UHGV virus genome: UHGV-0090440 | Length of the DNA: 64,000 nucleotides | Strand: one strand, 5' to 3' | Origin: a virus | Shown here: in pieces, positions 10,482 to 22,102 of the stretch | How positions within the stretch are numbered: position 1 is the first letter of the stretch | Layout of the letters: each line of letters begins with the position of its first letter | Position numbers and translations under genes: made by a program | The notes under the pieces: generated by a model | What the model saw: the letters and a program-made list of their open reading frames with translations, nothing else | Told to the model about the DNA's origin: nothing | Databases searched by the model: none

Positions 10482-11367
10482 ACACCTTTAACCACGGAGA
10501 TGCCGTTCCCTGCACGATAGCGGCGGGGAACGGAATTCTCCATCAGGTCACGAATTACTCCCGCCTCATGTAGTTCCACTGTTTCCCAGTATCTGTTTGT
10601 CGCCAATTACGCCCCGTTCCGCCAGGGGAAGGTATGAACGAGCTTCTGCTTCGGTTGCAGCCATGACGCAGATATACAGGTGTTTTTGGCAGGAATAGAA
10701 ACGCCAGATAAATTCAGAATGAGTTGGGGTGGGGATAGTAGCGATATTGGCAGCCTCCTTTGACTAAGTTAAGGAGCTACCGCGTGAGGTTCCAATCCCG
10801 GCACCCGTTTTTCTAAGGTGCCGTAGAAATATACCCCACGATAAGGCCAGGGCGCAAAAGTCAGTATTTTATGCTTTGGCGGATTTCTTCCGGGCTTGCT
10901 TGCAGGCGTAGGCCATTGCTTTAGCTTTCACTTCATCCAGCTTCCCGGTGATCACTTCTTTTCCGAGAGTGACAAACCAGTCATAGCAACCGCCAGTGAT
11001 GTTCTGGATTTGAAAGTTGAGGTAGCGAACGGTCATTTTGACACCCCCAGCGCGAGTAAAGAATGCAGATTATCGCGTGAGTGGCGGACAACGAGTGACG
11101 GGAAAAGACAGTAGCTGTTCATAGTGTAGTGACTCCTTGCTTTCGGAGCCGCCATCGACTGTTCCACGGTCTGGTGGCGGCGCAATAAAGGCTGGAACAC
11201 CGTGAGTCAACGGGGGCTTTTCAGCCACCTATATTGCACCGCCATAGGTATGGCGGCGGCAATAATACGAAAAACTATACAGTTTGTCTCAAAAAGTTGA
11301 CCGGTGTGCCAATCGGTAGTGAATGTACATCGGAGAAATTTATAATTCAACTTAAAATGTTAGAAAA

Positions 11368-11987: not shown

Positions 11988-12020
11988 ATGTTAGAAAATC
12001 AAAATTGATTTTCTAACACA
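11988..12020. promoter_or_regulatory. perfect inverted pair of operator-like motifs
   Basis: TGTTAGAAAATC-aaaatt-GATTTTCTAACA: 12-bp perfect inverted repeats, in the divergent region between the ref-like gene and the plus-strand gene block. Confidence 0.5.
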
Positions 12021-12214
12021 AAATGAAGATACTTTTTTCAGACGCTATATCAGGAGGTCATGATGCTTGTCGCAATTAGTGCAATCCACCAGCAATCCGG
12101 TACAGAAATTGGGTTGCTATATGTCCTGTTTTTCACTGTCCTGGCGTTGTTTGAGCTGGGCATTGAACTCTTTGCTCTCATCAACTTTTGCGTAACGTTC
12201 CTGGGGAAACTTTG

Positions 12215-12826
12215 ATGTCAAAACGCATTATGAAAATTTACATCGCGGGGCCGATGACTGGTTATCCCGGCTACAACCGCACAGCGTTTTTTTCGAAAGC
12301 AAAAGAGCTGATGGAGGTAGGGCATATTGTTCTGAATCCGGCGCTGTTACCTGCTGGCCTCTGCGAGAGCGAATACATGGATATTTGCCTTGCAATGGTG
12401 CGTTCGGCTAATGCGGTCTATTTGCTCAAGGGGTGGGAGGAATCAGTTGGCGCTCGTGCAGAGCACGAGCTGGCTCAAAAGCTGGGGCTGAATGTAATTT
12501 ATGAGTCACCAACCAACATTGAATGCCAGGTTGCTCCGCATATTTACCGGGAACTGGTCAATGCACTGCGTGATATCGCTGCTGTATATCACGGCACAGA
12601 ACAGCTTCGTGAGCGCTTAGCCCATACCATTTCCTATTACCTTTCTTTATCTCATGAGCACAAGCTCCGCCAGAAGGTAATGATCAAATTTATCATGAGG
12701 TTATCGAAATCCCTGGCAAACGCCGATCCAAAGAATCCATTACCGAAAGAGGCAATGAATTACCTAAAGTCCTGCAACGTTGTTTCTGAAGATGGCGTTC
12801 TTTTGGTTAGAAGGAGTTCTGCGTGA
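12215..12826 (+). CDS. DUF4406-like (nucleoside 2-deoxyribosyltransferase-like fold) protein
   Basis: KIYIAGPMTGYPGYN motif near the N-terminus is the DUF4406 signature as I recall it; ATG 12215 has a GGGGAA RBS. Confidence 0.45.
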   Translation: MSKRIMKIYIAGPMTGYPGYNRTAFFSKAKELMEVGHIVLNPALLPAGLCESEYMDICLAMVRSANAVYLLKGWEESVGARAEHELAQKLGLNVIYESPTNIECQVAPHIYRELVNALRDIAAVYHGTEQLRERLAHTISYYLSLSHEHKLRQKVMIKFIMRLSKSLANADPKNPLPKEAMNYLKSCNVVSEDGVLLVRRSSA

Positions 12827-13140
12827 GCTGGCGGGGATGGGGAAGGGCAGAAATCATGATACTCCGCCAGTGCGCCGGGACTATGACAGTCGAGGGTATT
12901 GGGAGACTGATCGGGCGTACCGGTGGTGCTGTCAGGACTAAAGCGCGGCAACTGCGGATCAGCATGATTCTGAAAGGAGACTTTCATCCGTCAGCCAAAT
13001 ACCGGCAGAGCGATATAGAACTGGCACGGCAGCTTCATCAGTGTGGTGTTCCCCGCCGTGAGATCGCAGAAAAACTCGAAATGCCCCTGGGAATGATTAA
13101 TCAGTACGTTTATTTCGAAAGGAGAGTACATGAAGTCTGA
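12823..13140 (+). CDS. hypothetical small DNA-binding-like protein
   Basis: 105-aa ORF overlapping the neighbouring stop; HTH-like segment VEGIGRLIGRTGGAVRTKARQL. Confidence 0.3.
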   Translation: MSWRGWGRAEIMILRQCAGTMTVEGIGRLIGRTGGAVRTKARQLRISMILKGDFHPSAKYRQSDIELARQLHQCGVPRREIAEKLEMPLGMINQYVYFERRVHEV

Positions 13141-13831
13141 AGGTTTAACGCCAGAGCAACTGGCGGAGATCGAGCTTTACTATCCGTTACGTGAACGTTA
13201 TTCACCGAAACCAGCGCCTAAATGCCCTGTTTGTGGCGAGGAAATGTCAATGCAGCGCATATCTGGATCACATGTTGTTTATGCCTGTTCCGGCATGGAG
13301 GATGACGGATGCTTCAAAACTGGACGAACTTATGCTGACGAGCATTACAAAAATTCGCGCATATCAGTAGTTGATGGTAGCGATCCTGATGTGATTGAAC
13401 TGCTGGACGAGAACGTGGAGAAGGCTCTAACGCTTGAGAATCTGCGTGTTGAGCTGGAGGCCGCTAAAAAGTGTATTGCAGAGCTGGAAAGCAATTGCGG
13501 GGCGCTGGTGGCGGAATGCCAAAACAAAAAAGCAGCACTTGAGGAAATTCTTAGCCATCTCCCAATTAATCATCCAGATATAGACATCGCATGTGTAGCG
13601 AACATAGCTCATAACAAATTAGGCGAGGCGAAAAGCACTACATCTGAAGCTTACCTTGTTGAAATACAGGCTCAGGGATTGGAGGCATTCGCTTTGACGA
13701 TGCGCGATACCGGAGATGATCCATTTTTTGATTCCGTTGCTTCTGCTTGCGCGGATGCGGCTGACAGGTTCGCAGCCCTGCTTCGTAAAGGACAATCCTG
13801 CCTGCGCCCGAACTTTGAAGGGAAAAGATGA
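13130..13831 (+). CDS. Ea22/Ead-like coiled-coil protein (paralogue 1)
   Basis: Coiled-coil segment [23 protein letters not shown] shared with the three paralogues below. Confidence 0.4.
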
Positions 13832-14154
13832 TGCCCACATCGCATTCTGCAATTACCCAGGAAAAAGCCTTCCACATACTCGAACGATTAGAGACGCTCG
13901 CTACGGAGGAGGATATATCCCCGGAGATGCTGGTTGAGTGCAGCCGTGTGATATTGCGTCGCAAGAACGACATCGCGCGGCTGACATCTGGCGCACCATC
14001 CGTATCAGCCAGTCCAACGCTTTATTGCAGCTTCTGCAACAAATCCCAGCACACCGTTAAAAAGTTAATTGCCGGGGACAACGCTTTCATATGCAACGAG
14101 TGCGTGAAAGATTGCAACAACATTATCCAGGAAGATCAAAGGGAATCAGCATGA
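13828..14154 (+). CDS. standalone ClpX N-terminal zinc-binding-domain homologue
   Basis: C-terminal 40 aa ([39 protein letters not shown]) align almost residue-for-residue with the E. coli ClpX N-domain ([40 protein letters not shown]), including all four Zn-ligand cysteines; no AAA+ module follows. Confidence 0.6.
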
Positions 14155-14834
14155 AATTTTCCAAATTTTCTGAGTTGGTGAATCGTATTTTGTCCAACAA
14201 CCACAGCCATCGTCGCGATATGGATGTAACGATCGTTGTTCATTCGCCTGGCAGCATTGGTTCAACACCTTCAGTTGAGGTTCAGTCAATTCACGCTGGT
14301 TTTGATTGGGATTCCGGGAAAGTGCTGATTTTCCCAGCACAGGCACTGACCACGCTAACACCAGAACAGATTACTGATATTACTGATAGTGTGCGCAAAG
14401 GTCAGTCCTGGCACGCATATCAGGAATATAAAAAGCATAAAGAGCAGTTGGAAAAATTGTCGATTGAACTGGATGCTGCAAAACAGCGCGTAGCAGAACT
14501 GGAGGCCAGTCGCGTGACGCTGGCGGAGGAGAACTCGTGGCTGAAGATGCTCATAGAAGATCATGCTGGTTGTACTGCTGTCTGCCCAAATTGCTCTCAT
14601 GAAGAACCCAGTGAAACAGACGACATTGTTTGGTCTTACCGTTCACGGGAAACGCCAGCCACCGATGCTTTCCTGGCTGAAGTACGTGCGCAGGGCGTGG
14701 ATATGGCTCGTAACGCGATGATTGATTTTGTCGATGGTGAAGTTGGGCCAAACAAGAACGTTCCGGGGCTGATTAGAGGCGCAGAGATATGCGTAAGTAT
14801 TGCTGAACAGCTTCGCAAAGGAGGCAGCCAGTGA
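14151..14834 (+). CDS. Ea22/Ead-like coiled-coil protein (paralogue 2)
   Basis: Start ATG overlaps the upstream stop (ATGA). Shares [17 protein letters not shown] and the C-terminal [11 protein letters not shown] with the 17717 paralogue. Confidence 0.4.
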
Positions 14835-15139
14835 ATATCGACACGACAATAACGATCGATACGCTCCTAAATACCGGTCTGGCACTTCTCGGTTGGCTTT
14901 ACATCATGTCCCGTACATGGCGTTGGCTGGGTTCCATTTTCCTGAAACAGTGGAAAAAACGGCGCAAACAGGAACTACGCCAGAAGGCATTAGAAGCGTT
15001 CTATGACGCATTTGAGCTTAGCCGCATTGAACCAGGCACAACAGCGAGGATAGCGACAAAAGGCGACCTGATGATAGTGATGTTCAGACAGGAGAAACCA
15101 AATGACAGAACAGACGATGACAAATCGCGAACTTGTTGA
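14831..15139 (+). CDS. hypothetical protein, N-terminal hydrophobic segment
   Basis: 102-aa ORF, stop/start coupled to neighbours. Confidence 0.3.
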   Translation: MNIDTTITIDTLLNTGLALLGWLYIMSRTWRWLGSIFLKQWKKRRKQELRQKALEAFYDAFELSRIEPGTTARIATKGDLMIVMFRQEKPNDRTDDDKSRTC

Positions 15140-15326
15140 TGCCGCGATTGAACTTGCTGGCGATTTTTATTCCATGATGGGGTACACGCATCGCCCAGGC
15201 TTCAAATATTGGGAGTCTCCGCACCCGCAAGAGCAACGGGTATTTCAAATGGCCTGCCGCGCTTTTGAAGTTATTCGCGGTTCTGATGTGATGGACGCGG
15301 TTGCTGATTTGGAGGATGAAGAGTGA
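15102..15326 (+). CDS. hypothetical protein
   Basis: 74-aa ORF in operon context. Confidence 0.25.
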   Translation: MTEQTMTNRELVDAAIELAGDFYSMMGYTHRPGFKYWESPHPQEQRVFQMACRAFEVIRGSDVMDAVADLEDEE

Positions 15327-15634
15327 ACACAATTAAAGAAATGCCGGTAGAACGTGATGAATATGGCTGCTGGACACATCCGGAGTATGAAAAGTTTTGC
15401 GCAGGTCGTGAATATATATCCACTGAGGAATTTGACGCCTGGATGAAGGAAAATAATCTTCAGTGGACTATTCGCAGTATGGATGAAGATCATTTTAATC
15501 TGGACGCAGATGGTCCCGATATTGCCGCCTGGGAACCAGAGCGACCAGAGGGCGAAGGATGGTTTGTTGGCTCTATTCATGACACTGAAGATGGCCCGGT
15601 TTGTATCTGGCTGCGGGAGAAGGTTGCCGCATGA
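15323..15634 (+). CDS. hypothetical protein
   Basis: 103-aa ORF overlapping the neighbouring stop codon. Confidence 0.3.
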
Positions 15635-16323
15635 ATCAGGCGCTGCATGAAGTGAATTTATATAGCCGTATTGATGGTTCAGGCTACAGAAACATATGGG
15701 TTGTTGGTGATTTGCACGGTTGCTGCACCCTACTTATGAATGAACTCCATCGTGTGGATTTTGACCCGACACAGGATTTACTGATATCGGTTGGCGACCT
15801 TATCGATCGCGGCACCGAAAATGTTGAATGCCTGGAGCTATTGCAGATGCCCTGGTTTCGGTCGGTTATGGGAAACCACGAGCGATTAATGATCGATGCG
15901 TTAAGTCCCGCAGGCAATGTGAATAACTGGCTAATGAATGGCGGTCAATGGTTCTTCATGCTGGACACTGATCAGGAAATATTAGCCAGGGCGCTGGTGG
16001 AGCTGGTAAAGCGTCTGCCCTATATCATTGAGCTGAACACCGGGCATGAAACTATCGTTATAGCCCATGCCGACTATCCAGGTGGAGAGTACCAGTTCGG
16101 TAAGGATGTGTCGCTTTTTGATGTTGTCTGGTCGCGCAGTCGCGTCGGTGATTCGATAGATGGCATTGGTGGAGAAATCACAGGCGCAGATCGCTTTATC
16201 TTTGGGCACACACCGGTACGAAGACCAAAAGCATACTGGAATCAGCACTACATAGACACGGGCGCGGTTTTTTGCGGAAATCTGACGCTAATGCAGGTGA
16301 AGGGAGGGCAGCTTAAAGTCTGA
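15631..16323 (+). CDS. ppp: Ser/Thr protein phosphatase (lambda-PPase / PrpA-like metallophosphoesterase)
   Basis: Metallophosphoesterase motifs GDLHGC, GDLIDRG, GNHE present; start taken at MNQALHEV (ATG 15631). Confidence 0.75.
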
Positions 16324-16349
16324 TCAAATCATTTACGCACTCAAAAAAG

Positions 16350-16380
16350 CGTTAGAACGTTGATTTTAGTTTTCTAACAT
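16350..16380. promoter_or_regulatory. operator-like motif pair
   Basis: GTTAGAACG ... TTTTCTAACAT, 40-70 nt upstream of the 16422 gene. Confidence 0.4.
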
Positions 16381-16421
16381 ATTATTTTACCGCTCGGAAC
16401 AAAACAGAGTCGGTATACATT

Positions 16422-17417
16422 ATGAGTGCAATAATCACACCTCATTTCGTAAACGGAGCTGGTGTGGCTGTCTTTCCGGTAGACAAGCCCACCAGCAACT
16501 ACATTGGCGCAGGTCGCCGTTTCATTATCTCTCCACTTCCGCGCGAACAGGCTGAAAACACGCCAGATGGCGTAGTGGATCTGAACTATTCGCTGGTTGC
16601 CAACCAGTCTCTGAAAGCATTTTTTCAAAGCGAGCGCGTATTTAACGCATTAGGCGGTGAAGATTCGCTTGTTCATTGGGTAAGTTCCAATATCCACGAT
16701 TGCCAGGCGCACGATAAGCGCGATTGCAGCCACCAGCTAACCACTCATTTCTATAACGGCTCTGCCGTTCGCCTGTGCTGGAAGCATGATGCGGAATACA
16801 TGATGAAGGGGTACGGCAAGCTGGATGACCAGTTATCCCTGAATCGTGCCAACTGGGTTATGAACTGGGCTGCGAGCGAGTTAAAACTACCGCCAGAACG
16901 CGATCTGAGCATGGTTGAACTCACTTTTTGGGCCATTCGCCGGAATCTGAAAGACGAGCTGCCAGATGAAGCCGGTCGCATTGCATTTTGTCAGCCAAAA
17001 CAGGAAATCCCTACCGGCACACTGAAAGAATCGGATATCACCTGGGAGCACAGCACCCGTGAGCTGGTGGACATAACCGCAGAGCAGATCGTCAACCTGT
17101 CTGTAGATGAGGATTCCGGCCTGCTGTATATGCGCCGACCAAAAGCAGTCCTCGGTAAAAGCCCGGCTTATCTCCGGTTTGTGGTTTCTCGTCCGTGCAT
17201 CGGATGCGGTGGCAAAGTTAACCACCCGTTCATGTACCGCGCCCGCTCGTTAAACGAACACGATCGCTGGGCCGTTCCTCTTTGCGATGAATGCGCCAGA
17301 AGCGCAGAAAACGATGTCCGGGCATGGGAAAAAGCACATGGCATACGCCTTTACGTAGCCGCCAACCAGCTTTTCGACTTCGCCATCGAGCGCGGAGTGA
17401 TCACGTTCAATAACTGA
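16422..17417 (+). CDS. hypothetical protein with C-terminal Cys-rich region
   Basis: 331-aa ORF; CIGCGG...PLCDEC near the C-terminus. Confidence 0.35.
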   Translation: MSAIITPHFVNGAGVAVFPVDKPTSNYIGAGRRFIISPLPREQAENTPDGVVDLNYSLVANQSLKAFFQSERVFNALGGEDSLVHWVSSNIHDCQAHDKRDCSHQLTTHFYNGSAVRLCWKHDAEYMMKGYGKLDDQLSLNRANWVMNWAASELKLPPERDLSMVELTFWAIRRNLKDELPDEAGRIAFCQPKQEIPTGTLKESDITWEHSTRELVDITAEQIVNLSVDEDSGLLYMRRPKAVLGKSPAYLRFVVSRPCIGCGGKVNHPFMYRARSLNEHDRWAVPLCDECARSAENDVRAWEKAHGIRLYVAANQLFDFAIERGVITFNN

Positions 17418-17430
17418 TGGGAACAATGCA

Positions 17431-17730
17431 ATGAGTCAAGGTAATGGTGACGGAGCTGCAAAGTGCAGAATCTCCACTTGTTTGATTAATGACAAAAAAA
17501 TAGAACCGTGCGCGGCGTTGGCACAATCCCTGGAGCAGGATGCTGAATACACGACGCGGAAAGGTCTGCTGAAATACAAAATCTATAACCATGAATTAAT
17601 TCATTCACAAGACCTGATCATGCTGCGGTCAGGCGAGCTTTCTAAATCGCCGATTCGAATTTCATTTTGCCCGTTCTGTGGTGAAAGTCTGAAAACGTGG
17701 GAAGCGGAGGCAACCAGTGATCAAAATTAA
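17431..17730 (+). CDS. hypothetical protein with Zn-ribbon-like C-terminus
   Basis: 99-aa ORF; C..C ... CPFC spacing. Confidence 0.3.
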   Translation: MSQGNGDGAAKCRISTCLINDKKIEPCAALAQSLEQDAEYTTRKGLLKYKIYNHELIHSQDLIMLRSGELSKSPIRISFCPFCGESLKTWEAEATSDQN

Positions 17731-18415
17731 CTATCAAGAACTGCGCGAGGCGGCGGAACAGGCAACGCAAGATGAATGGGTAGCATATATTTTGCCGGGT
17801 CATAACGGCATTTATCCTGCGCGCACGTCTGAGGGTAGGCATTGCGGATACTTTATTGACTGGCCTGGCATTGATGGACAAAGAAATGCTGGTGCTAATG
17901 CCCGTTATATCGCGGCTATCCCACCAAAAGTTGCGCTGGCACTCCTGGGCGAAATTAAGCGCCTGGAGGACACAAATATTGATGCTATGTGCCGAATAGC
18001 ACCGCTTGAGACTAAGCTCGCGGCTCTGGTGGCAGAGAACGCCGGGCTGAAACTCGCAATGGCTGTAACTCTTAATCATGTGTCGGTCACGGATGCAGGG
18101 CAGGCCGGAGTTGCTGCAATGATAATCAACGATGCTCTGCACCACAGCGAAACCCCAGCCACCGATGCTTTTCTGGCTGAAGGGAAGACTGAAGCACGCA
18201 AGGAAGGCGCTTATTTTGTGGCGAACAGAATGTTGGCAGCCTGGAAAGCTGGTTTTATTGATGATACTGCGAAGAACGCCGCGGATATTGCCCGGATGAT
18301 CCTTACCTCTACTGAGTTTATGGCTAATGCGCCGGAAGGCGATTTTGATCGCTCATTCTCTGATGGCGTTCTCGAAGATATCGCCGAACAGCTTCGTAAA
18401 GGAGTCATCCAATGA
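17717..18415 (+). CDS. Ea22/Ead-like protein (paralogue 3)
   Basis: N-terminus KINYQELREAAEQATQDEW and C-terminal [11 protein letters not shown]...[11 protein letters not shown] shared with paralogues. Confidence 0.4.
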   Translation: MIKINYQELREAAEQATQDEWVAYILPGHNGIYPARTSEGRHCGYFIDWPGIDGQRNAGANARYIAAIPPKVALALLGEIKRLEDTNIDAMCRIAPLETKLAALVAENAGLKLAMAVTLNHVSVTDAGQAGVAAMIINDALHHSETPATDAFLAEGKTEARKEGAYFVANRMLAAWKAGFIDDTAKNAADIARMILTSTEFMANAPEGDFDRSFSDGVLEDIAEQLRKGVIQ

Positions 18416-19122
18416 GCAAGATTGATTATCAAAAGCTTCGTGAAATCGCTGAAAAAACAAAAATTGCTGGTGAAGCACCTGTAATGCCTTTCGATCAGCG
18501 AATTAATGCGCTTAACGATTTTATGAAGCACTTTTCGCCAGATATCGCGCTGGCATTGTTGGATGAATGGGAAAGAAACCAGCAATACATAAAACGCCGC
18601 GATCAGGAGAACGAGGATATTGCGCTAACGGTAGGGAAGCTGCGCGTTGAGCTGGAAGGCAAAGACAGCAAAATAGCCAATCTTACCGCCGAACGCGATG
18701 CTCTTCGTGAAGGTGAGATGGGCGACGCTAGGCATAGCAACACACGGGCCGCAGCTGATATCTACTTCCAACTGGTCGAGGAGTGCGAAATTCCTGCTGG
18801 CGGTTCTCTGGTCGAGTACGTTGACGATATGCGCGAGAAGCTGGAAGCCGCAGAGAAGCGCATTGCAGAACTGGAAAGCAACGAAGTCCGTGAAGTCGGA
18901 AATCAGTTTCTTGTTGTTCGCCATCCTGGGAAAACTCCTGTCATCAAGCACTGCACTGGTGACCTGGAAGAGTTTCTGCGGAAGTTAATCGAACAAGACC
19001 CGTTAGTAACTATCGACATCATTACGCATCGCTATTACGGGATTGGCGGTCAATGGGTTCAGGATGCAGTTGAGTATCTGCATATGATGTCTGACGCTGG
19101 CATTCGCATCAAAGGAGAGTGA
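18412..19122 (+). CDS. Ea22/Ead-like coiled-coil protein (paralogue 4)
   Basis: N-terminus SKIDYQKLREIAEKT and coiled coil LEAAEKRIAELESNE parallel the other paralogues. Confidence 0.4.
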   Translation: MSKIDYQKLREIAEKTKIAGEAPVMPFDQRINALNDFMKHFSPDIALALLDEWERNQQYIKRRDQENEDIALTVGKLRVELEGKDSKIANLTAERDALREGEMGDARHSNTRAAADIYFQLVEECEIPAGGSLVEYVDDMREKLEAAEKRIAELESNEVREVGNQFLVVRHPGKTPVIKHCTGDLEEFLRKLIEQDPLVTIDIITHRYYGIGGQWVQDAVEYLHMMSDAGIRIKGE

Positions 19123-19123
19123 T

Positions 19124-19954
19124 ATGAGCGCTATAACCAAAGATCGACTACTGACAATCAAGCAGTGGCGCGAAACATACGGACCTGGTAGCAACGTTGT
19201 ACTGCCAGCAGAAGAAGCGGAAGAACTGGCGCGGATTGCGCTGACATCGCTGGAAGCAGAGCCTATTGGTGAAGTTTCAGAGAAGCAACATGGCCTTGTT
19301 ATGGATGGGACGGTAGACCTTGGCGGGAAATCAACTTATCGCATCATTAAGGGAGAAAAAGCGATGAAGTTGTTGCCGTTGGGGACGAAGTTTTATACCG
19401 CACCGCCAGCGCCGATAACGCCGGAGGCCATTGAAAACGCAATTGAATACATCCGCAGTATCGCTTTTCACATCGATGAAGACGATTACCACGGCAAACA
19501 TATTGCGTATTTCATGCGACAAGCATTGGCCTGGCTGGAAGGGCATTCATGCAGCGACGACAGACAGGGTAAAGCCGAGAATCAACCAGTACGCGGCAAC
19601 CATGCTGCCGAATCCAATCGCGGTAATGAGTGGACCGGCAATCCTGATATTGATAACGCAATCATCATGCTCGACCGCATAGATACGCTGGAAAATTGCG
19701 ATGATGACCGTATTGAGGCTGTTAAGGCCGTTTTGCGTAGACTGGCTGGCAACCATCCGGATTTTCCGGATAGCTCCCAACAATCGCCCAAGGAAAGCGT
19801 AAAAACCACTCTGGAAAGAGGCTATCTTGAGGCCGCATTAAAGATTAAGCCGGGCCATACGCTAGGCGTCATTGATGCCATGTTGGTTCATGAAATGGCG
19901 AAGGCTTTATTGCCGCTGGTGGCTGATAAAATTCCGAATAAGGCCGATATCTGA
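19124..19954 (+). CDS. hypothetical protein
   Basis: 276-aa ORF, last gene of the plus-strand block, followed by a terminator. Confidence 0.35.
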   Translation: MSAITKDRLLTIKQWRETYGPGSNVVLPAEEAEELARIALTSLEAEPIGEVSEKQHGLVMDGTVDLGGKSTYRIIKGEKAMKLLPLGTKFYTAPPAPITPEAIENAIEYIRSIAFHIDEDDYHGKHIAYFMRQALAWLEGHSCSDDRQGKAENQPVRGNHAAESNRGNEWTGNPDIDNAIIMLDRIDTLENCDDDRIEAVKAVLRRLAGNHPDFPDSSQQSPKESVKTTLERGYLEAALKIKPGHTLGVIDAMLVHEMAKALLPLVADKIPNKADI

Positions 19955-21038: not shown

Positions 21039-21428
21039 ATGGGCTTCCCTTCTCCTGCGGCGGATTATGCTGAGAGCCGTATTTCTCTTGATCAGCAGAT
21101 AATTAGACATCCTTCAGCGACCTACTTCATGAGGGCAGCTGATAGTCATCATCGTGAGGGAATATTACAGGGTGCTTTGCTGGTGGTTGATTCCTCGCTT
21201 ACTCCGGTTGATGGTTCTCTGCTTGTGTGCGCTATGGAGGGTGAATATCGCATAAAGAGATACAGGAAGTATCCGCGCCAGCACCTGGAGGATTTAAGCA
21301 CCGGGAGGAAAGAGGCGTTACCAGTGGATGACGATGGATGCACGGGGAGTAATGCTGTTTTTGGTGTGATCACTCATGTCATCAATGATGTCCGAAGTGG
21401 GGAATTTGATGATTGTCCGGTGATTTGA
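21039..21428 (+). CDS. humD: UmuD'-like protein (HumD)
   Basis: GFPSPAADYAE..ISLDQQIIRHPSATYF aligns with UmuD (GFPSPAADYVE..IDLNQLLIQHPSATYF); C-terminus VFGVITHVI matches UmuD VFGVVIHVV. The GDSM Ser-nucleophile motif appears replaced (DSHH), as expected for a pre-processed UmuD' analogue. Confidence 0.75.
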   Translation: MGFPSPAADYAESRISLDQQIIRHPSATYFMRAADSHHREGILQGALLVVDSSLTPVDGSLLVCAMEGEYRIKRYRKYPRQHLEDLSTGRKEALPVDDDGCTGSNAVFGVITHVINDVRSGEFDDCPVI

Positions 21429-21500: not shown

Positions 21501-21722
21501 ATGCAATCCATTAACTTCCGTACCGCGCGCGGCAACCTTTCTGAAGTGCTCAACAATGTTGAAGCCGGGGAAGAGGTTGAAATCACCCGCAGAGGCCGAG
21601 AGCCAGCAGTAATTGTCAGCAAGGCTACTTTTGAAGCCTACAAAAAAGCGGCGCTGGATGCTGAATTTGCATCCCTGTTTGACACCCTGGACTCCACCAA
21701 CAAGGAACTGGTTAACCGATAA
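21501..21722 (+). CDS. phd: Phd antitoxin
   Basis: [39 protein letters not shown]... matches P1 Phd as I recall it; immediately followed by doc. Confidence 0.85.
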
Positions 21723-22102
21723 TGAGGCATATATCACCGGAAGAACTTATTGCGCTTCATGATGCGAATATAAGCCGCTACGGCGGCCTGCCGGGAATGT
21801 CAGATCCGGGTAGGGCAGAGGCCATTATCGGGAGAGTTCAGGCCAGAGTTGCCTACGAAGAGATCACCGACCTTTTCGAAGTCTCCGCCACCTACCTGGT
21901 GGCTACGGCGAGAGGGCATATATTCAATGATGCCAATAAGCGTACCGCGCTAAACAGTGCGCTGCTATTTCTACGCCGTAACGGTATACAGGTATATGAT
22001 TCTCCCGTGCTGGTGGAACTTGCGGTGGGGGCCGCAACTGGTGAAATCCCCGTATCTTCAGTAGCGGAAAAACTACGTGAATTATTTGGTTCCAATATTT
22101 GA
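21722..22102 (+). CDS. doc: Doc toxin (Fic-fold kinase)
   Basis: 126 aa; start overlaps the phd stop; [11 protein letters not shown] Fic-like motif. Confidence 0.85.

Follow-up and report, generated by a model that had tools for sequence, protein, structure and literature searches.

An orphan ClpX-type zinc-binding domain joined to a helical hairpin in a D6-like phage-plasmid, and its possible role as a decoy in ClpXP substrate choice

Introduction

The unfoldase ClpX uses its zinc-binding domain (ZBD) to dock lambda O, MuA, SspB, RssB and trigger factor (TF), and ClpX without this domain leaves lambda O undegraded (PMC7804408). A hydrophobic region that includes F16 and I46 was described as the shared site for TF, lambda O, SspB and RssB (PMC7804408). 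Isolated Escherichia coli ZBD supplied in trans was found to inhibit, in a dose-dependent manner, the RssB-mediated breakdown of sigma-S that wild-type ClpXP carries out, and the ZBD dimer was cross-linked to RssB (PMC7226468). In the present work we analyzed a stretch of 64,000 nucleotides from the virus genome UHGV-0090440 (hereafter the 64-kb window, to which coordinates refer), which belongs to a D6-like relative of phage P1, a temperate phage-plasmid, and which carries at 13828-14154 on the + strand an orphan ZBD gene, i.e., one that encodes a ClpX-type ZBD but no AAA+ ATPase. An initial annotation of this DNA, made from the letters and without database searches, had drawn attention to the gene, and its description of the ClpX ZBD as the docking site for adaptors, lambda O and MuA agrees with the published data (PMC7804408). 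It had also stated that no characterized phage protein of this kind was known, and a full-text literature search likewise found no study of a phage orphan ZBD; the "ZBD" of the NetFlax paper is an unrelated MqsA domain.

The orphan protein resembles the E. coli ClpX ZBD in fold and family, in the ligand spacing C-x2-C-x18-C-x2-C, in a sequence identity of 63-68% and in retaining equivalents of F16 and I46; it differs from ClpX in being phage-encoded and in having, instead of the AAA+ motor, a 60-residue N-terminal hairpin and linker. The isolated recombinant ZBD (PMC7226468) is likewise motorless and inhibits ClpXP degradation by sequestering an adaptor, but it is a laboratory fragment of ClpX, whereas the phage protein is the natural, diverged, two-domain product of a gene known from sequence. 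Among phage proteins, lambda RexB was reported to protect lambda O, Phd and MazE from degradation that depends on ClpX/ClpA (PMC11077077, PMC10286901). RexB shares with the ZBD protein its phage origin and the predicted physiological outcome, but is an unrelated membrane protein that is expressed in the lysogen, has no ZBD and acts by an unknown mechanism. With the Lon inhibitors T4 PinA and T7 Gp4.5, too, a host AAA+ protease is impaired by a small phage protein, and lambda CIII is a small phage inhibitor of FtsH; unlike the ZBD protein, all three have other protease targets and unrelated sequences, and they act on the protease rather than as copies of a docking domain. The anti-adaptors IraD, IraM and IraP come close in another respect, in that they stabilize sigma-S by binding the adaptor RssB and not the protease, and a shared RssB site has been proposed for IraD and the ZBD; in contrast to the phage protein, they are host-encoded, have unrelated folds and are specific for RssB. 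None of the known precedents for protease interference (RexB, PinA, Gp4.5) uses a ZBD.

Results

Identification of a ClpX-type zinc-binding domain without an ATPase

The gene is an intact open reading frame (ORF) of 108 codons that ends with TGA at 14152-14154, and its residues 65-107 (14020-14148, + strand) are identified by profile, sequence and predicted-fold comparisons as a specific ClpX-type ZBD. The score for the Pfam profile PF06689 (zf-C4_ClpX) was 63.3 bits (gathering score 27; E=1.8e-17), residues 66-102 covering profile positions 2-39 of 39. When PDB sequences were searched with phmmer, the E. coli ClpX ZBD ranked first (1OVX, E=9.8e-15; 2DS5, E=3.1e-14), and full-length ClpX chains came next. 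By direct count, 26 of 41 residues from L65 to R105 (63%), or 25 of 37 from Y66 to E102 (68%), are identical to those of E. coli ClpX, and the identity to proteobacterial ClpX ZBDs is 67-69%. An AlphaFold2 model built from the 24-sequence family alignment described below showed a zinc ribbon followed by a C-terminal helix over residues 65-107 (pLDDT 80-88). All eight of the best Foldseek matches of this model in the PDB were either structures of the E. coli ZBD (2DS5/6/7/8, 1OVX) or a model of ClpX; over 36-42 columns, the former were 62-69% identical to the protein and the CLPX-CLPP model 9a5x was 40% identical, and the predicted fold gave target-normalized TM scores of 0.68-0.75 with an rmsd of ~2 Å to 2DS5/6/7/8 and 1OVX. 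With a Pfam score more than twice the cut-off, and with LIM and RING fingers appearing after the ZBD set at E>0.4 only, a generic zinc ribbon was ruled out. The zf-C4_ClpX search proposed in the initial annotation thus returned a specific match, and the standalone, about two-thirds identical ClpX ZBD homologue that it had described in this 108-aa protein stands; the extent given for the domain, the last 40 residues, has to be revised to residues ~65-107.

The four zinc ligands, whose codons were read directly on the + strand, are C67 (14026-14028), C70 (14035-14037), C89 (14092-14094) and C92 (14101-14103). They have the C-x2-C-x18-C-x2-C spacing noticed from the outset, and all four are invariant in the 24 family members, as are F69, K72, G83, I88, E91 and V93. 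By position, F69 corresponds to ClpX F16 and I99 to ClpX I46; residue 99 is I in 12 members, V in 10, L in one and G in one.

No AAA+ module was found in the window, where tblastn with full-length ClpX recovered ClpX residues 13-56 only. The NCBIfam ClpX equivalogs NF003745 and TIGR00382 stayed far below their cut-offs of 359 and 371, with 45.9 and 41.2 bits, and their matches were confined to residues 64-106, in accordance with the lack of an ATPase first reported. A split or truncated clpX and a pseudogene were both rejected in view of the absence of an AAA+ module from the window, the invariant cysteines, a dN/dS of 0.17-0.44 and the occurrence of the gene in 110-195 E. coli genomes. A known anti-phage defence component was rejected as well, as no family of the PADLOC-DB defence models matched the protein at E<=0.01. 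The Ead_Ea22 profile (PF13935), which is relevant to the neighbouring genes, had no match in the ZBD protein, for which Pfam gave the ZBD alone.

The second ATG, at 13831, is the start chosen by PGAP (107 aa) in a 99.7%-identical copy on plasmid NZ_CP076307, where the product is called "ClpX C4-type zinc finger protein". The protein also matches PHROG 6797 (unknown function; E=2.5e-55), with residues 2-107 on profile positions 1-106 of 107. The PHROG 6797 and PGAP annotations reflect the domain by itself, with no function attached. An older family name, "carboxylate--amine ligase", is seen in D6 (orf93) and P88 (gp19); it was discarded as an identity, being backed by no profile searched (Pfam, NCBIfam).

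The N-terminal hairpin and the linker

Residues 10-53 (13855-13986, + strand) were predicted by AlphaFold2 to form a helical hairpin, with helices at residues 11-27 and 32-53 (pLDDT ~67-78). Its core, EKAxxILERLExLAxEExIS…LVECxRIxLRRxxDI, is conserved, and the turn is acidic and conserved (A-T-E-E-D/E-I-S-P). Residues 54-64 (13987-14019, + strand) form a linker of low confidence (pLDDT ~57), which is the recombination junction of the mosaic variants described below, and the overall pTM of 0.37 gives no confident placement of the hairpin relative to the ZBD. Nothing significant was obtained for the hairpin in a profile search of PDB sequences or in Pfam at E<=10, and residues 1-62 used as a query in a word-indexed search retrieved the same family or truncated fragments only. 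Among near relatives, the hairpin occurs only joined to the ZBD, and it is also kept in the distant members P0037, P0040, P0138, P0168 and L080. The "free domain copy" of the initial annotation is therefore apt for a motorless ZBD, but not for a mere copy, as the conserved hairpin had been overlooked.

Family, mosaic variants, selection and distribution

From the word-indexed search came 24 cluster representatives with lengths of 77-121 aa, each of them from an Escherichia or Salmonella source, and a further four full-length clusters, more distant ones (P0037, P0040, P0138, P0168), were gained by an exhaustive profile search; the best 150 matches of the latter search were mostly tandem-ZBD proteins, with ~8 full-length family clusters among them. 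The architecture common to the family is a helical hairpin, a variable linker and the ZBD. Six sequences (P0001, P0003, P0006, P0013, P0023, P0024) stand out in the family alignment as mosaic alleles. In four mosaic variants, the start of the upstream Ea22-like gene is fused at residue 9 of the ZBD protein, and in P0023 and P0024 unrelated coiled-coil N-termini are joined at an SGAPSVSAS linker. The mosaics show recombination between Ea22-like genes and the ZBD gene, and with such exchanged N-termini the ZBD behaves as an exchangeable module.

Long-range comparison with the 48%-identical P88 homologue gave a dN/dS of ~0.2-0.35 for the ZBD and of 0.17-0.44 overall, values indicative of purifying selection. 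Pairwise values among close relatives (L001, L003, L007) were 0.5-2.0 in the ZBD versus 0.3-0.8 in the hairpin, based on very small counts. The ZBD positions that vary among these relatives (71, 75, 76, 84-85, 94-95 and 98) are on the surface; the high close-range values are a hint of surface diversification and nothing more, the counts being too small for positive selection.

Of 5,426 complete E. coli genomes, 110 had the gene at a nucleotide identity of at least 80%, and plasmids carried 104 copies. Distant-mode blastn with the 129 nt that code for the ZBD matched 195 of the 5,426 genomes, including 100 chromosomal places, so that the prevalence in complete E. coli genomes is ~2-3.6%. All 12 of the blastn matches listed were orphan genes and none was host clpX. 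A recent capture from E. coli clpX was rejected on these data: 195 of 5,426 genomes were matched, though clpX is expected in essentially all of them, and the listed matches were all orphans.

The early operon and a putative operator

The ZBD gene overlaps both of its neighbours by an ATGA. Its start codon overlaps the stop codon of the upstream Ea22-like gene (13130-13831) at 13828-13831 (+ strand; sequence GGGAAAAGATGATGCCC), and its stop codon overlaps, at 14151-14154 (+ strand; sequence CAGCATGAAA), the start codon of the Ea22-like gene downstream (14151-14834); the same 3' overlap is seen in the PGAP annotation of plasmid NZ_CP076307, where the ZBD gene lies at 16004-16327 and the Ea22-like gene at 16324-17019. 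Such overlaps at both ends are the usual mark of translational coupling, which would place the three genes in one operon. Both flanking genes are ead/Ea22-like according to PGAP; the upstream one also matches Pfam Ead_Ea22 (E=2.2e-10), a match that was not found for the downstream one. The upstream protein (13130-13831, + strand) has an N-terminal Cys-rich segment resembling a zinc ribbon (CPVCGEEM…), with weak matches to Lar restriction-alleviation, YdjO and TFIIB-type ribbons at E ~0.01-0.1, below cut-off.

According to the ORF lists, the D6 and NZ_CP076307 annotation and Pfam, the gene belongs to a tightly packed, co-directional early/accessory run on the + strand (12063-19954). The order in this run is a small ORF, DUF4406, a helix-turn-helix (HTH) gene, the Ead/Ea22-like gene, the ZBD gene, the Ea22-like gene, DUF4752 and two small ORFs, followed by a metallophosphoesterase gene (P1 ppp-like), a DUF968/HNH gene (pdcB-like) and further Ea22-like genes. 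Downstream of the run are hot, humD (S24 peptidase), phd (21501-21722) and doc (21722-22102), phd/doc being ~7.3 kb downstream of the ZBD gene. The humD-like S24 peptidase gene (21039-21428) has the same orientation as the ZBD gene, and an unrelated plasmid of SSU5 size (L007) also has an S24 peptidase gene (10529-10918) downstream of, and co-oriented with, its ZBD gene. UmuD/UmuD' is a client of ClpXP and tethers to the ClpX N-domain; the co-occurrence of S24 peptidase and ZBD genes may be a coincidence.

No sigma-70-like promoter was predicted on the + strand between 12188 and 19500. A perfect 30-bp palindrome, TGTTAGAAAATCAA AA TTGATTTTCTAACA (11989-12018, no strand assigned), lies between the divergent ref and the first + strand ORF and overlaps a candidate promoter with a -35 element TTGATT (12005-12010) and a -10 element GATACT (12028-12033). 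Within the window, 14 copies of its 14-nt half-site TGTTAGAAAAyyAA were counted versus 0.59 expected; the other positions are 2611, 9411, 11358, 16366, 25037, 26361, 26449, 30882, 37367, 38409, 47484 and 48688. The P1 C1 operator consensus had no match in the window at up to 3 mismatches, and control by a P1 C1 operator was rejected, a different dispersed motif being present instead. The palindrome and its repeats may represent the dispersed operator set of a D6-type immunity repressor, and the palindrome would then control the ZBD operon. If it is a repressor operator, the operon would be shut off in the plasmid prophage and switched on early once the phage is induced or infects a cell.

Four temperate-phage backbones

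We compared four temperate-phage backbones. One is that of the D6/P1-like phage-plasmids, to which the window belongs. Another is represented by the SSU5-size plasmid L007 (~110 kb), one of many ~106-114-kb plasmids or phage genomes with the gene. In P2-like prophages and phage P88, the gene is located after gene A, parM and stbB and before the portal gene; in a lambdoid prophage, it is found in the nin-type region, downstream of O/P-like replication genes. On all four backbones the ZBD gene points in the same direction as early, replication or accessory genes, and three of the four, P88 being the exception, have an Ea22-like gene next to it or close by. In the P2-like prophages and P88 (L003-L006, L008), a partition pair of ParM/StbA-like and StbB-like genes is directly upstream of the ZBD gene; such a plasmid-partition pair is an unusual cargo for an integrating P2-like phage.

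No phd/doc was present in the stretches of 5-9 kb examined on either side of the homologues on the P2-like, SSU5-like and lambdoid elements. The initial annotation had linked the ZBD gene to the Phd antitoxin, a ClpXP substrate encoded about 7 kb away; this distance is correct for the window, but a general link to the family is not borne out by the homologue loci, and the proximity of Phd is incidental to the family.

Orphan zinc-binding domains in other phages

Orphan ZBDs are also found outside this family, where short genes unrelated to it are similarly placed in phages of Pseudomonas and Caulobacter and in metagenomic phages. Pseudomonas D3-like phages (phi1, PP9W2) encode a 65-aa ZBD-only protein between replication genes and ninB/ninG. 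In PP9W2 (L010, 2289-2686), the 65-aa ZBD gene overlaps the stop of an upstream gene for a DksA/TraR-type zinc finger, so that two different C4 zinc-finger mimics of host factors adjoin each other after the replication genes. The virulent Caulobacter phage Cr30 has a 72-aa ORF with a complete ClpX-type ZBD (L011, 1507-1725; 81491-81709 in the record). The Cr30 record annotates only the C-terminal 41 codons (gp170), starting inside the ZBD, and the full ORF and the end of gp169 share 41 nt.

A scan of IMG/VR gave 78 loci, with ~42 members of the present family, ~10 full-length ClpX and ~25 other short ZBD proteins. These ~25 proteins have 60-183 aa and combine the ZBD with assorted N- or C-terminal extensions, several of them as an N-terminal helix followed by a C-terminal ZBD. 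Phage orphans share 56-87% identity with the ZBDs of proteobacterial ClpX. Among the same-strand neighbours of 24 diverse loci with an orphan ZBD, those with a Pfam match were replication, recombination, methylase, HNH and regulatory genes, and one terminase gene, with no recurrent single partner.

At E<=1e-3, the ZBD occurs in 16,749 clusters (50% identity), many of the best-scoring of which consist of 2-6 tandem ZBDs without an ATPase. Such tandem proteins are bacterial or metagenomic (P0029-P0035, P0046, P0053, P0083, P0089 and others); for instance, P0029 has four ZBDs in 221 aa, and P0046 has two in 98 aa. They could be covalent mimics of the ZBD dimer, and we know of no function assigned to them.

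Discussion

Docking-domain mimicry as a proposed mechanism

We propose that the gene encodes an early two-part phage protein in which a hairpin for some partner would be combined with a motorless copy of the docking domain of host ClpX. When the operon is derepressed by induction or infection, the free ZBD, probably dimeric, would bind ZBD-dependent adaptors or substrates. Once sequestered, these would be kept from ClpXP, with the result that a subset of clients would be selectively stabilized while ZBD-independent degradation by ClpXP would go on unaffected. The hairpin may add avidity, oligomerization or client specificity. The clients spared could be initiators of phage or plasmid replication, Phd and other labile antitoxins, proteins of the HumD/UmuD' type or sigma-S; the position of the gene after replication genes in lambdoid, D3-like and P2-like phages suggests replication initiators in particular. 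The proposal presumes that the same ligands are bound, that expression is early and that the clients so chosen are the relevant ones.

We consider such a decoy function to be the best-supported mechanism, tentatively and at somewhat less than an even chance. It is made biochemically plausible by the precedent of free E. coli ZBD, which inhibits adaptor-mediated degradation by ClpXP. The same trans-inhibition by the ZBD was reportedly obtained for lambda O by Wojtyra et al. 2003. The residues that match the hydrophobic patch, identified as such by sequence only, are kept in the family, F69 being invariant and residue 99 being I or V in 22 of 24 members. The invariant cysteines, the dN/dS and the number of E. 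coli genomes given above argue for a gene that is real and maintained. It is situated on four temperate backbones, always in early or replication-proximal co-directional operons, and in the window an operator-like palindrome appears to head the operon. Independent orphan ZBDs recur after replication genes in Pseudomonas D3-like phages and on ~25 metagenomic viral contigs, with replication or regulatory genes as neighbours and hardly ever structural ones. By analogy, the inhibition of host AAA+ proteases by phages is an established strategy (RexB, PinA, Gp4.5).

Several points weigh against a decoy. No client gene is conserved alongside the family across phage types. The contacts between the ZBD and its ligands are weak tethers, and hence a decoy needs high expression. 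Compared with near-invariant ClpX residues, the ZBD has ten surface changes (G18N, E23T, P31D, S32N, V33A, Y34F, D41K, L42D, D45N, R48Q), which, from sequence comparison, affect positions nearly fixed in real ClpX. Moreover, the ZBD is so small that its conserved residues may be mostly structural, and the conservation of F16 and I46 is thus no proof of retained ligand binding. ZBD modules are found in thousands of non-ClpX proteins, so that other roles are possible, and the strong conservation of the hairpin implies a role beyond that of a simple decoy.

Alternative explanations

The ZBD could instead be a generic zinc-stabilized module for dimerization or interaction with no link to ClpXP, the function residing in the hairpin or being exerted together with the Ead/Ea22-like neighbours, for example in the control of lysis-lysogeny or replication as proposed for genes of the exo-xis/ea region. 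The 16,749 clusters with a ZBD, many of them short or tandem non-ClpX proteins, the repeated flanking of the gene by Ea22-like genes, the natural recombinants with Ea22-like N-termini on the ZBD (P0001, P0003, P0023, P0024) and the divergence of surface positions from ClpX all favour this explanation, and zf-C4_ClpX is mentioned once in a paper on the domain architectures of cyanobacterial sigma factors (PMC11119718). However, the similarity to ClpX is high (63-74% in the family and up to 87% in other phage orphans) and no DNA-level trace of a recent capture from E. coli clpX was found, which together argue for maintained constraint rather than drift; furthermore, orphans with different or no extra domains recur in similar phage regions, as would be expected if the ZBD itself were the functional unit. 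We regard a generic module as rather unlikely. Still less probable, in our estimation, is that the ZBD serves as a handle on ClpX, by pairing with one of its ZBDs or by taking the place on the AAA+ ring that ZBD dimers usually occupy, and brings the hairpin to the unfoldase, either as a phage-specified adaptor for new cargo (for instance a host defence protein or repressor) or as a cap that blocks the pore. The ZBD does dimerize, as seen by cross-linking (PMC7226468), and ZBD2 units are mobile on the ring (PMC7804408); cargo binding would give the conserved hairpin a role, and in Staphylococcus aureus, according to a preprint (10.1101/2022.09.18.507959), prophage induction requires for its completion the ClpX-dependent removal of repressor fragments. 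Against a handle, the ClpX ZBDs are at a very high local concentration in the hexamer, which makes subunit exchange unlikely. The ZBD dimer is also said to be very stable (Wojtyra et al. 2003). In addition, no cargo candidate is conserved beside the gene at the P2-like, SSU5-like and lambdoid loci, and AlphaFold2 gives no confident inter-domain arrangement (pTM 0.37).

Two further explanations relate the protein to other phage or host activities. A prophage exclusion factor, i.e., a free ZBD that in the lysogen blocks ClpX functions needed by other phages, such as the remodelling of the MuA transpososome, a process dependent on ClpX and its ZBD, is improbable. The location between gene A and the portal gene in P2-like prophages is a variable locus, which in P2 holds old and tin, and would suit this role, as would the fact that MuA is a ZBD-binding substrate (PMC7804408). 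On the other hand, the PADLOC defence models were unmatched, the operator-like palindrome ahead of the early operon suggests repression in the lysogen, and the gene is co-directional with replication genes in lambdoid and P2-like settings. Most improbable of all is a factor for the secondary channel of RNA polymerase like DksA/TraR, in which an acidic-tipped helical hairpin is likewise found together with a C4 zinc finger. The likeness, a hairpin with an acidic turn (TEED/E) followed by a C4 domain and a C-terminal helix, is superficial, and in Pseudomonas phage PP9W2 the orphan ZBD gene does have a gene of the DksA/TraR type directly upstream; however, zf-dskA_traR was unmatched in Pfam at E<=0.1, the zinc domain is unambiguously of the ClpX type, and the helices, with 17 and 22 residues, fall far short of the DksA coiled coil in length.

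Implications for phage control of ClpXP

The gene and its domain are already in databases (PGAP, PHROG 6797) and are fairly common, and the observation itself is not new; that orphan ZBD genes are a recurrent feature of phage early regions across hosts appears to have gone unrecognized so far. Beyond the single gene, docking-domain mimicry might extend to orphan ClpX ZBDs in general as a widespread and hitherto unrecognized class of phage early proteins that redirect the substrate choice of ClpXP, a generalization that we hold as possible but doubtful. The hairpin-ZBD family, found in enterobacterial phage-plasmids and in P2-like and lambdoid prophages, would then be one lineage, with the 65-aa D3-like proteins and many metagenomic variants as others, and the choice of the adaptor or client to be captured would be tuned by what is appended to the ZBD, as the hairpin is here.

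Replication initiators, antitoxins, SOS proteins and sigma-S are under the control of ClpXP, as is Mu transposition, and many of these clients are chosen through the ZBD. The precedent of trans-inhibition makes the specific mechanism immediately testable, and the decoy hypothesis is open to direct test by standard ClpXP assays. If it holds, the protein would be a phage modulator of a host AAA+ protease with a new principle, in which a copy of the docking domain edits specificity, and the first viral factor known to edit the specificity of ClpXP instead of blocking the protease. It would provide a genetic tool that separates ZBD-dependent from ZBD-independent proteolysis in vivo, and it would help to make sense of the non-ClpX ZBD proteins that databases contain by the thousands. 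For the phage-plasmids themselves, it would offer a rationale for how labile replication and addiction proteins are protected at the lytic switch.

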